Position numbers and translations under genes: made by a program
Origin: Pseudomonadota bacterium
Lineage (GTDB): Bacteria; Desulfobacterota; Desulfobacteria; Desulfobacterales; JBDRRP01
Assembly: GCA_043825735.1 (NCBI GenBank)
Contig: JBDRRP010000090.1
Coordinates: 1 to 64,000 of the forward strand
Direction of reading: 5' to 3'
Length of the DNA stretch: 64,000 bases
Notes under the pieces: model-generated
What the model was told of the DNA's origin: nothing
The model's database searches: none
Seen by the model: only the letters and a program-made list of their open reading frames with translations
Shown: one piece after another, positions 10,010 to 44,204 of the stretch
How the letters are laid out: every line of letters starts with the position of its first letter
Position numbering within the stretch: the first letter of the stretch is position 1

Positions 10010-10142
10010 TGGCGGCGTCAATTCGCTTGTCATATGGTCGCTGCGCGACCGTCATTTGCCGGCTCCGCCGGCGTCAATCGCTCGCTGCGCTTCGCTGTCA
10101 ATGACGCGTCGAAGACGCTTGTGACGCGCCGCAGGCGCAATT
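10010..10142. repeat. Short divergent array of TGAC plus mini-hairpin units (family D)
   Basis: Minus-strand units TGAC-GGTCGC-GCA-GCGACC and TGAC-GCCGGC-GGA-GCCGGC; plus-strand TGAC-GCGTC-GAA-GACGC and TGAC-GCGCC-GCA-GGCGC. Confidence 0.75.
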
Positions 10143-16299: not shown

Positions 16300-16491
16300 C
16301 TGCGATGGCACCAGGAAGAACACGAAGTTCACGAAGAAAACAATTAAATCGCAGGCTAACAGCTTCGTGAACTTCGGGGTTATCAAAAATGCCATCGTGC
16401 CAAGCAGATTTTACAACAATACTCGGTTTGGTGCATAATCAGGTAACTGAACAGCGTTTTCGGCATGTGTTGCCGGGAAAGGAGAATACCC

Positions 16492-17295
16492 GTGGCATTG
16501 CTCTATGAGAAGAAAAACAATATCGCCACCCTGACGCTGAACCGGCCCCACGCCCACAATGCCGTGGATCCGGAGACCGTCCTCGAGCTGGTGGCGGCCT
16601 GGGAGGACTATCGCGACGATGCGGCCATGCGATGTGCCGTGATTACCGGCGCTGGGGACCAGAGCTTTTGCGCCGGCGCCGATCTGGCCACCTTGATTCC
16701 GCTGTTTACCGGGGCACGCAAAGGTGAGAGCGCGGCCGAAAAAAAGGTCCAGGCCGACCCCAGCGTGTCCATGAAGGCCTTTTTGAGGGATTTTCCCCTG
16801 TTCAAACCCGTGGTGGCGGCGGTCAACGGCAACGCCATTGCCGGCGGCATGGAACTGCTCTACGGCACGGATATCCGGATCGCCGCCGACACAGCCCGAT
16901 TCGGCCTTCAGGAAGTGCGCTGGTCGGTTTTTCCCATGGGCGGATCCACGGTGCGCCTGCCGCGGCAGCTGCCCTATGCCAAGGCCATGGAAATCCTGCT
17001 TACCGGCGAGCTCATGGATGCCGCCGACGCCCTGCGCTGCGGGTTTGTAAACCGTGTGGTCCCCCAGGCCGATCTCATGGCCGAAGCCTACCGTTTTGCC
17101 GAGACCATCGCCAAAAACGGTCCGATGGCTGTGACCGCGGTGAAGCAGGCGGTTCTGGAAAATCTGGGCCGTCCGACCGAAGAAGGGCTCAAGCGGGAAA
17201 TGGAACTGGCCATCCCGGTATTTCTCAGTCAGGATGCCCGGGAAGGGCCAAGGGCGTTCAAGGAAAAAAGAGATCCGGTGTTCAAGGGGCGGTGA
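16492..17295 (+). CDS. Enoyl-CoA hydratase (EchA19-like)
   Basis: FCAGADL, IAGGMEL, GTDIR, WSVFPMGGSTVRLPRQLPY, DAREGPRAFKEKR; GTG start after AAGGAG. Confidence 0.9.
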   Translation: MALLYEKKNNIATLTLNRPHAHNAVDPETVLELVAAWEDYRDDAAMRCAVITGAGDQSFCAGADLATLIPLFTGARKGESAAEKKVQADPSVSMKAFLRDFPLFKPVVAAVNGNAIAGGMELLYGTDIRIAADTARFGLQEVRWSVFPMGGSTVRLPRQLPYAKAMEILLTGELMDAADALRCGFVNRVVPQADLMAEAYRFAETIAKNGPMAVTAVKQAVLENLGRPTEEGLKREMELAIPVFLSQDAREGPRAFKEKRDPVFKGR

Positions 17296-17296
17296 G

Positions 17297-17615
17297 TGTG
17301 CTGGCTGCGCCAGCGTCAATGGCTCGCTGCGCTCGCGTCACATGCTGGCTGTGCCAGCGTCATATGGCCGTTTCGCGACCGTCAATTGTCGGCTGCGCCG
17401 ACGTCACTGATGGTCAATTCGCTTGGCAGCCAATGACGCGCCGTCAGGCGCTATTGACGCCCCGTAGGGGCAATTGACGCGTCGAAGACGCATTTGACGC
17501 GCCGTCAGGCGCAATTGACGTTCGCGAAGCGAACCATTGACGTGCCGAAGGCACAATTGACGCGAGCATCGCGAGCATGTGACGCCGCAGGCAAATGACT
17601 CCGGCAAAAGCCGGC
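17297..17615. repeat. Large divergent array of TGAC plus GNA-loop mini-hairpin units (family D): 5 units on minus, 9 on plus
   Basis: e.g. TGAC-GCCCC-GTA-GGGGC, TGAC-GCGTC-GAA-GACGC, TGAC-GTTCGC-GAA-GCGAAC, TGAC-GTGCC-GAA-GGCAC; period about 16-22 bp. Confidence 0.9.
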
Positions 17616-17628
17616 CAAGGAACTCTTT

Positions 17629-18225
17629 ATGAAAATCGTCGGCCTCACGGGTGGTATCGCTTCGGGCAAATCGACCGTTTCGGCAATGCTGGCCGAACTG
17701 GGTGCGGCGGTCATCGACGCCGACCGGATCGCCCGGGAAGTGGTGCGGCCGGGTATGCCGGCCTATTCCCGGATCGTGGATCATTTCGGCCAAGCGGTTT
17801 TACTGCCTGACGGTGAGATTGACCGCCAGGCCCTGGGGGATATTGTCTTTTACGATGCAGCGCAAAAAGAGGTCCTAAACGCCATTGTTCACCCTGAAGT
17901 CATCTCGGCCTACGCCCTTGAGATTGCCGCGCTGGAAAAAGACCGGCCCGAAGCCCTGGTGGTCATGGACGTGCCGCTGCTGCTGGAGAGCCGAATGCAC
18001 GAAGGGCTTTGCGAAGTCATCGTGGTCTATGTCCCCGAATCGCTCCAGCGAAAACGCCTCATGGCTCGCGACGGCATTTCAGCAGCCGATGCCGATGCCC
18101 GCATCGGCTCTCAGATGCCCATTGAAGAAAAAAAACGCTGCGCCACCATCGTCATCGACAACACGGGCGATCTTGCCGAGACCCGGCGCCAGGTGACGGC
18201 CGCGTTTCACCGTCTGGTGTCCTGA
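17629..18225 (+). CDS. coaE: Dephospho-CoA kinase
   Basis: GLTGGIASGKSTV, IDADRIAREVV, IVHPEV, DVPLLLE. Confidence 0.95.
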   Translation: MKIVGLTGGIASGKSTVSAMLAELGAAVIDADRIAREVVRPGMPAYSRIVDHFGQAVLLPDGEIDRQALGDIVFYDAAQKEVLNAIVHPEVISAYALEIAALEKDRPEALVVMDVPLLLESRMHEGLCEVIVVYVPESLQRKRLMARDGISAADADARIGSQMPIEEKKRCATIVIDNTGDLAETRRQVTAAFHRLVS

Positions 18226-18291
18226 CCCCCGCCTTTTCGGTCGTACTTGCATCTTTTCCCTGCCGTCGCCTATAGTGCCCCTGCTCCAATG

Positions 18292-18657
18292 TTGATGGTC
18301 CCGAAAAAGTCCGAATCTCTCGCAAAGCCGCAGAGATCGCAAAGCTAAAAAAATGATATTAAAAATGTTTTGCGGTTCTCTATGAAGCTCCAGTTGTCCG
18401 GTGGCCCGGTCCATCGGCGCCCGGACACGCGGCATGAATGACCCTGCCCGCCAAGGGCGCCCCGTGGTTGACGGGTGTTATCGAAATCGCTATCGGGATC
18501 GAAATCGCAATCGGCGGTTGCCGTTACCACGGTGGCAGCAAATGGCGGATCAGGGACAAAATAATTGCCAACACCCGATACCGATAGCGATACCGATTGC
18601 GATGAACGGCGCGCTTGGCGTCTTTGCGAGAAAATTGCTTTTTTACGGATTCATCAT
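18292..18657. repeat. Family A element with nested CGCAAAG-type and hexamer repeats
   Basis: TTGATGGTCCCGAAAAAGT ... CTTTTTTACGGATTCATCA enclosing an inverted (NNCGAT)n pair. Confidence 0.75.
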
Positions 18658-27797: not shown

Positions 27798-29519
27798 ATG
27801 AGCATGGAAGACGTTATCGCACGGTGTCTGCCCGCCTACAGCATCGGGGAAAAAGTCGGCGAAGGGATCTACGGCTGCGTTTATCGCGTATTTGACGACT
27901 ACAAGCAGCGTGCTGTCAAAGTCGTACCCATCAGCATCGAGCGGTCCCTGGACTGCCGCACTCCCGAAGCGCTCGACTCGCAGGTGAGCCGCGACTTTCA
28001 CGTGGTCAAGGCCTACTACGACCAGATCAAGGGGCCCGGCGTCATCGAGGTCTACGATTTTCACCTGATGGACAAGATTGTTACGCCCCAGAAGGCCGAA
28101 GCCCATCTGGTAATCCTCATGCAGCTGTGTCCGTCAAATCTGATGGACTACGTCCTTGACCAGTTCCCGCTGCCGCCATCGGGCGTGTTGCGGCTCATGC
28201 GCTCGCTGGCCGATGTGCTTCAGCGGCTTTCCGAGAAATCCGAAGAAGTCTTTCTGCTCACCGACCTCAAACCGTCCAACATCCTGATGGACGACGCCGG
28301 CCGGCCACTCATCGGCGATCTGGGCGGCATCAAGCGGGTCGGGGGGGCCTCCACCTCAGTGGCCCCCCAGTTCACCCCGAACTGGTCCTCGCCGGAGTTC
28401 ATCCTCAGCGGCGCAAGCCCCCAGCTCGCCTCGGTGATCTTTGCCTACGGGCTGGTGAGCTATTTTCTGGCCGAAGGCCGGCTGCCGTACGAGAAAGAAA
28501 ATTTCGTCGAGCGCATCCGCCTCATGAAAACCGGTGGCGTTTCCTTTCACCGGAAGAAACTTCCCATGGGCATCCGGCAGCTCATCTGCGCCTGCCTGGC
28601 CCACGACCCAGACCAGCGGCCGGCCAGCTTTGCCGAACTGGTGGCACACCTCAACGACATCTCCGAGGAGCATCGGGGCAACGCCAGCTACGGCATCGGC
28701 AACCGGGTGAACATCACGGGGGCCCGAAAGCCGCAACTGAACGGCTCGGACGCCGGCGCCGGCTCGCGCCCGATTGCGGTCCCGCCGCCCCCGCGCGAGC
28801 AGCCCCCGTGGACCGAACCGGTGGTGGGCATTTCCTTTGTGTGGATTCCCGGCGGGGCCTTTGATTTTGCGATTCCGAATCTCAGCCTGCCGTCCGCGCC
28901 CCCCCTTATGGAAACCATTGTCGTGGGCGGTTTCTGGATGGCCACCACGCCGGTGACTCAGGGCCAGTGGCGCCGGGTGATGGGGAGCAACCCGGCCATG
29001 TTCACCAAAGGCGATACTTACCCGGTGGAAACCGTTTCCTGGGAAGAGTGCGCCGATTTTCTCCGGCGCTTGGCCGCCATGAATAGCAACCGCTATCACT
29101 TTACCCTGCCCACCGAAATCCAGTGGCAATATGCGGCCACTGCCGGCGGTCAGCTGGACGCTACCGCGGTGGCGCCGAATGTCGACCAGCAGGCCTGGCA
29201 TCGGGCCAACAGCGGCATGTCCACCCAGCCCGTGGGGCTCAAGGAGCCCAATGCCCTGGGCCTCTTCGACATTCTCGGCAACGTCATGGAATGGTGCGGG
29301 GAAAACGCCTCGCAGGTCATCTATCGCGCGGGCCGGCGCCGCACCTCCATTTATGCCGACGTGGGCAACCGGCAGCCCGGCCGGGGCGGCAGCTGGAAAT
29401 CCGCCGCCGCAGATTGCTGCCCGGCCTATCAGCGCATGTTTACACAGCAACTCGGCTATGCCACGCTCGGGTTCAGGGTCGTGCGGCTTTACGGGGAAGA
29501 CGGCGGCAGTAGCGCCTGA
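27798..29519 (+). CDS. Ser/Thr kinase-like domain fused to FGE-sulfatase (SUMF1) domain
   Basis: GEGIYGCVY, AVK, TDLKPSN, GDLG; C-terminal TLPTEIQWQYA, NALGLFDILGNVMEWC, RGGSW, LGFRV. Confidence 0.85.
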   Translation: MSMEDVIARCLPAYSIGEKVGEGIYGCVYRVFDDYKQRAVKVVPISIERSLDCRTPEALDSQVSRDFHVVKAYYDQIKGPGVIEVYDFHLMDKIVTPQKAEAHLVILMQLCPSNLMDYVLDQFPLPPSGVLRLMRSLADVLQRLSEKSEEVFLLTDLKPSNILMDDAGRPLIGDLGGIKRVGGASTSVAPQFTPNWSSPEFILSGASPQLASVIFAYGLVSYFLAEGRLPYEKENFVERIRLMKTGGVSFHRKKLPMGIRQLICACLAHDPDQRPASFAELVAHLNDISEEHRGNASYGIGNRVNITGARKPQLNGSDAGAGSRPIAVPPPPREQPPWTEPVVGISFVWIPGGAFDFAIPNLSLPSAPPLMETIVVGGFWMATTPVTQGQWRRVMGSNPAMFTKGDTYPVETVSWEECADFLRRLAAMNSNRYHFTLPTEIQWQYAATAGGQLDATAVAPNVDQQAWHRANSGMSTQPVGLKEPNALGLFDILGNVMEWCGENASQVIYRAGRRRTSIYADVGNRQPGRGGSWKSAAADCCPAYQRMFTQQLGYATLGFRVVRLYGEDGGSSA

Positions 29520-29807
29520 CGGCGCGCCATATGTTCGCTTCGCGAACGTCAATTGCTCGCGATGCTCGCGTCATTAGTCGGCTACGCCCATGCCACTAAT
29601 GGCCGGTTCGGTAAGCTTTCAATCACGTTCGCGTAGCGAACCTCTGGCGCCCCGCAGGGGCATTTGACGCTCCGAAGGAGCATATGACGTCGGCGAAGCG
29701 GTCGCGTAGCGACCAAATGACGCGAGCATCGCGAGCATTTGACGTGCCGTAGGCACTATTGACGCTCGCGCAGCGAGCTATTGACGCTGGCGCAGCCGGC
29801 AATTGAC
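29511..29807. repeat. Divergent array of TGAC plus GNA-loop mini-hairpin units (family D)
   Basis: TGAC-GCTCC-GAA-GGAGC, TGAC-GTGCC-GTA-GGCAC, TGAC-GCTCGC-GCA-GCGAGC; central spacer resembles the one at 17407-17433. Confidence 0.88.
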
Positions 29808-44066: not shown

Positions 44067-44204
44067 TGAGCCTCCTGCACAAGGTCGGTTTGATGAACCA
44101 CGAAGAACACGAAGGTCACGAAGTTTTGATCTCACTGCTTGAAAAGGATTCTCTTCGTGCACTTCGTGCACTTCGTGGTTCCCATTCGGTCTTTCGCAAT
44201 GAAA

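Follow-up and report, generated by a model that had tools for sequence, protein, structure and literature searches.

The closest published relatives of the hairpin arrays described here are the ORF-bearing intervening sequences (IVSs) of 23S rRNA and the Gut-1 motif. As outlined in PMC4990558, an IVS places an ORF of the S23p family (23S_rRNA_IVP, PF05635) between inverted pairing ends, is sporadically distributed and can lose its ORF by decay, and its mobility is proposed there without explanation; these traits have counterparts in the cassettes of which the arrays are probably copies. The same outline gives this four-helix-bundle family solved structures and no known function, and the sections of PMC3936711 that concern the family note it in cas loci only. 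Gut-1 (RF01706) is, like the arrays, a string of variable small hairpins joined by a constant 7-nt linker, and the portions of its description available to us (PMC2864571) present a human-gut noncoding RNA of three hairpins with neither a two-arm layout nor a partner gene. Heptamer-type repeats are over-represented in bacteria and unexplained (reported in part of PMC4692102); those of Xanthomonas and Nostoc resemble the arrays in being intergenic 7-mer runs near stop codons, often inverted pairs, of unexplained origin, and differ in their word, which forms G-quadruplexes, in having no inset hairpins and, within that part of the source, in having no partner gene reported. REP/BIME/REPIN elements with TnpA-REP (RAYT), as treated in parts of PMC6006769 and PMC3733652, share with the arrays an intergenic position behind stop codons, a tetranucleotide beside a hairpin, and the occurrence of one gene-bearing copy and many empty ones.

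The window, i.e. the whole 64,000-nucleotide stretch of DNA analysed, belongs to a 6.8 Mb genome in 160 contigs (G000; C-numbers denote its contigs) and holds three divergent hairpin arrays, at 10010-10142, 17297-17615 and 29511-29807, the coordinates at which they were first reported from inspection of the letters. The pattern TGACG-stem-C-GNA-G-stem-3 nt-TGAC matches 13 times in the window, every time within these three arrays, and never in 100 dinucleotide shuffles of the window. A contig of run X1, possibly the source sample, covers 16894-18331 with zero differences, so the main array (17297-17615) is not an artefact of this assembly. The features of the three arrays and the host genes that flank the main one are as follows.

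10010..10100, minus strand: second array, left arm, containing a fixed three-unit order
10102..10141, plus strand: second array, right arm, ending 3 nt from the stop codon of the upstream thiolase gene
16465..17295, plus strand: enoyl-CoA hydratase, host gene upstream of the main array, outside the element
17300..17406, minus strand: main array, left arm, five units TGAC-stem-loop-stem-NNN in minus-strand reading
17407..17433, no strand assigned: main array, centre, two degenerate minus-strand words without a conserved core
17434..17615, plus strand: main array, right arm, eight hairpin units and a degenerate ninth, TGAC-punctuated, 16-22 nt each
17562..17576, plus strand: unit with two tandem G.A pairs in its stem (letters read directly, G.A pairing inferred)
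17629..18225, plus strand: dephospho-CoA kinase coaE, host gene downstream of the main array, outside the element
29513..29573, minus strand: third array, left arm, overlapping the last codons and stop of a kinase/FGE gene
29574..29664, no strand assigned: third array, decayed units separating the arms
29665..29807, plus strand: third array, right arm

The left arm of the main array begins 4 nt past the stop codon of the enoyl-CoA hydratase gene, and a single base separates the arms of the second array. The earlier note had described similar centres in the two large arrays; these centres proved to be decayed units with no conserved core, and in 5 of the 11 arrays of the genome only 1 to about 5 bases separate the arms. 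The centre of the main array (17407..17433) is the position that a four-helix-bundle gene occupies in complete cassettes elsewhere. The kinase/FGE gene (window 27798-29519) terminates within the first unit of the third array, and its orthologue in genome G001 has a different C-terminal tail at an orthologous site without the array, which indicates that the insertion rewrote the last codons of this gene. The upstream neighbour of coaE also differs in G001, so that no clean empty site was found for the main array.

All arrays carry GTCA on the left arm and TGAC on the right, and both arms consequently read TGAC-hairpin-NNN outward. The basic word is a 7- or 10-mer of TGAC-NNN type, and the 16-22 nt unit is this word with a mini-hairpin set between TGAC and its last three bases; unit lengths in 273 arms of the fetched loci peak at 7, 10-11 and 14-22 nt. 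Many arms carry TGAC words without any hairpin, which makes the hairpin optional, and around genes hairpins are less frequent in upstream arms (63 of 455 words) than in downstream ones (133 of 463). GNA triloops, which stabilise DNA hairpins, close 77 of the 110 units in G000 and, outside it, 321 of 419 perfect stems, as against 6 of 419 with GNRA loops and 9 of 419 with loops of the complementary TNC type. Units with identical rather than complementary halves, such as 17562-17576, can be read, on the TGAC strand, as stems that include two tandem G.A pairs; tandem G.A pairs are stable in stems, and this unit points to the TGAC strand as the one that folds. Judged from their letters, the loop types fit single-stranded DNA on the outward-reading strand, in line with the stable single-stranded DNA hairpins envisaged previously.

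An RNA element resembling a 23S rRNA IVS that had moved into operons would account for some of these features: its arms would pair into a long branched stem, to be cut by RNase III or to set mRNA stability, and the protein of the complete cassette would bind RNA. That protein belongs to the family of the IVS S23p ORF, and IVSs are bounded by inverted repeats and cut by RNase III (as given in part of PMC4990558); the arrays also have complementary ends able to form a stem, the main array being predicted to fold arm-to-arm as RNA at -174 kcal/mol (z -7.2). In 53 of 58 loci the gene and its upstream neighbour point the same way; Avd, a protein of similar predicted fold, binds RNA in the structures listed for it, and the part of PMC2864571 that defines Gut-1 does so as an RNA. 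A low folding energy is, however, expected of any string of palindromes, the predominance of GNA over GNRA loops favours DNA over RNA, good loops on the outward-reading strand of both arms would reach a transcript in one arm only, and 4 of the 11 arrays lie between convergent or divergent genes. We regard an RNA element as improbable. The main array aligns over the full length of the Gut-1 model (30.9 bits, E 0.00036), and all Gut-1 scores obtained (30.9, 31.5 and 35.7 bits) are below the gathering score of 50; an Rfam scan of the window gave nothing at gathering level. The linker differs as well, with GUGA in Gut-1 and GUCA in the arrays.

The earlier note had proposed a genome-wide scan, and this returned 66 matches to the TGACG-hairpin-TGAC pattern, all on seven contigs that together carry 11 arrays, and none to the reversed pattern. 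Array clusters contain 97 of the 169 strict units of the genome, and unit pairs no more than 45 nt apart number 71 for TGAC, as against 0-1 for any one of 16 control words. The 11 arrays are all flanked by protein genes, and none is in a 23S rRNA helix, which sets them apart from IVSs, as do ends built of repeated words with inset hairpins in place of one 28-bp stem (a length given in an excerpt of the IVS literature). Seven arrays lie between co-directional, three between convergent and one between divergent gene pairs. Arrays follow host stop codons closely: where an arm end faces the 3' end of a gene, it starts within 5 nt of the stop or overlaps it in 11 of 13 cases. The three window arrays are all at junctions of co-directional genes, as would suit regulatory elements evolved for the neighbouring CoA-metabolism genes. 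The neighbours of the 11 arrays, and of arrays in other phyla, are unrelated housekeeping genes, orthologous junctions without an array exist (L222, L220, L266 and L271), and the main array showed no promoter-like or terminator-like site; a regulatory origin is accordingly the least credible of the readings considered here, and almost certainly wrong.

Sorting of the 127 units of G000 into 14 classes showed that identical units avoid each other, with 2 identical neighbours where 14.3 were expected (none of 5000 shuffles gave so few); for other organisms the figures are 21 against 35.7 (p 0.001, for loci that are not independent). Distinct neighbour pairs are fewer than expected (49 against 58.7, p 0.0002). 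In 5 of 11 arrays one type of arm has three units in a fixed order, and tandem repeats of 3-4-unit blocks, read by eye from the unit orders, are present in C127, C115 and C101. The 3-nt tail is associated more strongly with the hairpin before it (z 6.5) than with the one after it (z 3.9), which is what exchange at TGAC would produce. Unit pairs common to different loci did not differ from within-arm shuffles (33 against 34.3), and same-unit recurrence at distance 2 outside G000 was not enriched (34 against 30.1). Comparison of orthologous loci, another step that had been proposed, revealed that units are gained and lost entire: in a related population (run X2) precisely one unit of 22 nt, at 17335, is missing, and the array at C106, common to G000 and G001 (L212), keeps three units and differs in the remainder. 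Unit order is partly inherited and partly reshuffled as whole units. The shuffled units of the earlier note are borne out as regards reshuffling, although free shuffling is contradicted by the fixed three-unit order and the tandem blocks, and its view of a modular family that is neither CRISPR nor single-unit slippage stands. CRISPR loci combine a constant repeat of 23-50 nt with unique spacers and cas genes, whereas the arrays have a 4-nt constant part, recurring palindromes and housekeeping flanks.

The pattern matches at least once in 45 of 401 genomes of the order, many of them by chance, and three or more times in 10 genomes besides G000. A stricter pattern found 71 stretches in GTDB genomes titled Cloacimonadota, Rhodothermales, Kiritimatiellae, Bacteroidales, Verrucomicrobia, Desulfobacterales and others, and this patchy presence across phyla suggests horizontal spread. 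Some pattern matches (e.g. L001, L002, L037 and L097) were rejected as chance hits in coding DNA. Other palindromic repeats (CGTC-REP-like and a CCCTC-type palindrome) share gaps with TGAC arrays at L019, L079 and L081.

The proposed builder of the arrays had been an HUH/Y1 tyrosine transposase that reads TGAC as a guide tetranucleotide at the hairpin foot, making them a REP-like family. A tetranucleotide 5' of the hairpin foot is indeed the layout of REP and IS200 elements, of which atypical families with other feet exist (as covered in part of PMC6006769), the placement behind stop codons is REP-like, and one of the 8 Y1_Tnp matches of the genome could act in trans. None of these, nor any of 5 GIY-YIG matches, is on an array contig, however, and the flanks of the 8 Y1 and of 4 GIY-YIG genes of G000 contain no TGAC units. 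A tblastn search of Y1/GIY-YIG proteins against 194 loci (710 kb, E 1e-4, with a positive control run) gave no hit, and a Pfam scan of 100 of the 141 ORFs flanking arrays in other genomes found no Y1, GIY-YIG, reverse transcriptase or integrase. On contig separation, the tblastn search and the flanking-ORF scan, Y1/HUH and GIY-YIG genes were rejected as partners, a Y1/HUH enzyme is largely refuted as the cognate gene, and a REP-like origin has very little to commend it: the hairpin is optional, the tag is TGAC and not GTAG or GTGG (the control words GTAG and GGAG form no tandem pairs in G000), and the gene actually enclosed belongs to a family without known catalytic activity, TIGR02436. CGTC-tagged REPs, as characterised in part of PMC3733652, have 8-9 bp stems starting with AT, 4-5 nt loops and a CCA tail, and occur mostly as head-head dimers; the arrays have GC stems of 3-6 bp, GNA triloops and long head-to-tail arms, an arrangement that the same part of the source presents as rare in CGTC families.

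Besides a repeat-derived frame and housekeeping genes, the only ORF cluster found near arrays across organisms encodes a four-helix-bundle protein (TIGR02436/PF05635). Seven of eight tested ORFs of this top cluster are TIGR02436; its member at L048 was rejected as a spurious frame across repeats. Starting from the arrays, 54 of 59 arm pairs have centres of at most 169 nt and are empty, and the other 5 have centres of 439-600 nt, every one of which encloses TIGR02436; no other gene type was found between TGAC arms among the 59 pairs. The gene family that was to be sought at array centres is thus this one, and it lies outside the window, which had rightly been described as lacking a cognate enzyme. 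Starting from the protein, and counting as arms 3 or more GTCA upstream and 3 or more TGAC downstream of the gene, TGAC arms were present at 53 of 65 metagenome loci with full flanks (80 fetched) and at 8 of 13 loci of the order (3 of the 13 being seed sequences). Sister clades carry other words instead, with TGAC arms at 0 of 13 loci (17 fetched). Of the 30 rows that one clade occupies among the 68 proteins of a tree, 27 have TGAC arms (branch support 87/94, not starred), which shows clustering of TGAC arms and not co-evolution, given that kin share labels and that neither loci nor rows are independent.

The arrays have the layout of a repeat-armed TIGR02436 cassette, in which diverging arms of a clade-specific word surround a gene or nothing; an S23p/PF05635/TIGR02436 ORF, the link to ORF-bearing IVSs, is found inside complete cassettes elsewhere and is absent from the window copies. 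We consider it probable (roughly 0.66) that the arrays are gene-less, non-autonomous copies of a guest cassette, formed by one four-helix-bundle clade between diverging TGAC-NNN arms. Alternatively, the arms could be self-propagating repeats, maintained through slippage, template switching or gene conversion by host enzymes, and the gene a passenger captured once. Hairpins between direct repeats are known slippage substrates, block repeats do occur, empty pairs outnumber filled ones, and arrays abound in genomes in which the cognate clade was not found. A passenger captured once would not, however, account for the finding that each clade examined, including five other TIGR02436 genes of G000, has its own word in the same inverted layout, for the absence of any other enclosed gene type among the 59 pairs, or for a protein strongly conserved across phyla (58% mean identity), and we think self-propagating arms unlikely.

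The distribution of the cognate clade only partly follows that of the arrays. It is present in 6 of the 10 other array-rich genomes of the order and in 7 of the remaining 390, a comparison that is partly circular, as the arms of the gene itself match the pattern, and that one family dominates. Among five array-bearing genomes reached from stricter-pattern loci, three have the clade and a fourth has a broken gene piece beside one arm. The clade was not found in G000, G001 or G401, all of which have arrays, among the best 10 candidates scored per genome in assemblies that may be incomplete; the TIGR02436 genes of G000 reach at best 22-35% identity to it. Its absence from the G000 assembly makes the arrays of this genome likely non-autonomous relics, and its absence from these three genomes and from 4 of the 10 other array-rich ones implies that arms persist, and perhaps spread, without the gene. 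At one aminotransferase / methylmalonyl-CoA-epimerase-like junction, G003, G352 and G373 have gene and arms (L182, L184 and L186), G001 has arms only (L214), and G000 (C48) has an unrelated 9-mer repeat instead. The 93 gene loci reduce to up to 50 site clusters, and the presence of 21 of the loci at one junction is as compatible with long vertical residence as with mobility. Neither an intermediate of transposition or insertion nor a target duplication, catalytic motif or transfer vehicle was found, with no relative of the clade in IMG/VR and one distant relative only in PLSDB; mobility of the cassette is suggested only by its patchy presence. The full-text literature searched, which mostly does not extend to subscription papers, contains no paper linking the four-helix-bundle gene to repeat arms.

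The predicted structure of the cognate protein (pLDDT 82.5) has as best matches Xcc0516 (2GSC) and BT_0352 (2RLD), followed by Avd (4DWL). Avd, of diversity-generating retroelements (4DWL, 8UB7), is alike in predicted fold (TM about 0.72) and belongs to a nucleic-acid-binding pentamer family; unlike in Avd systems, no reverse transcriptase (100 of 141 flanking ORFs scanned) or template repeat was found beside the arrays, and sequence identity is 12-14%.

Several other loci show variants of this layout. In G000, C15, C151, C152, C22 and C17 hold five other TIGR02436 genes, each flanked by inverted runs of a 6-10 nt word of its own, and further bare runs of TGAC-containing 7-, 8- and 10-mers are present at C36, C55, C72, C93, C101 and C145. 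A sister-clade gene at L278, in an apparent cas operon, has arms with a TGAC-containing 7-mer in opposite polarity (TGAC upstream, GTCA downstream). At L144, L147, L161 and L172 the arms preceding the gene are TGAC-oriented, which suggests tandem or nested cassettes or arm inversion, and L188 (G151 C251) has two cognate genes 1.5 kb apart in one operon resembling gas-vesicle genes. Seven GxxExxY (TIGR04256) genes on G000 C27, C25 and C151 (L260-L265), of which the six with printed flanks are bounded by inverted 9-mer repeats, offer a parallel in which another protein family is set between arms.

A given junction can be occupied by different repeat families. An inverted 9-mer repeat element lies at the CoA-transferase / acyl-CoA dehydrogenase junction (window 44090-44190), where G001 has a TGAC array (L213); the same swap is seen at G000 C48, and the reverse direction at the pdaD-speB junction (L271). 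The gap between coaE and an ABC transporter (window 18304-18640) contains two nested gene-less elements, an outer one of 9-mer type and an inner one of 6-mer type, the latter resembling the flanks of the C17 four-helix-bundle gene. Contig depth is very high at 18276-18400.

For the guest cassette we propose the following course of events. The clade protein, whose predicted fold is like those of Avd and Xcc0516, both pentamers, likely binds the word of its own clade in single-stranded nucleic acid. Together with a host enzyme it would help to place copies of the cassette, with or without the gene, in the neutral stretch that separates a stop codon from the ribosome-binding site after it. Arms would then be remodelled at the DNA level: a stable hairpin between two TGAC direct repeats could be deleted as a unit, and multi-unit blocks could be duplicated and copies exchange units, giving the half-shuffled order. 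In G000 the cognate gene has likely been lost, with 11 relics remaining, and the copies in the window are probably inert. A bolder proposal, which we offer tentatively and think doubtful, is that the pentamer serves an undescribed class of mobile element as the core that reads sequence. Every clade would recognise a 7-10 nt word of its own, and a host polymerase or reverse transcriptase would join it in writing or inserting units singly at TGAC, at the outward 3' end of each arm, from a shared pool of mini-hairpins. If true, such one-by-one writing would account for the scarcity of identical neighbours and for a unit order that is only half shuffled, as well as for the heptamer repeats that have long lacked an explanation in many bacteria.

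What Rfam lists as 'Gut-1 RNA' may represent one arm of a cassette of this kind. More broadly, the association of a little-studied four-helix-bundle family with repeat arms makes that family a possible source of unexplained short repeats in bacterial genomes. The clade-specific link between protein and word renders two questions, the function of the protein and the origin of the repeats, testable with one small protein, a defined substrate and sister-clade controls, and the hairpin-studded form seen in this genome adds a structural readout in its DNA-type loops, strand polarity and unit-wise turnover.
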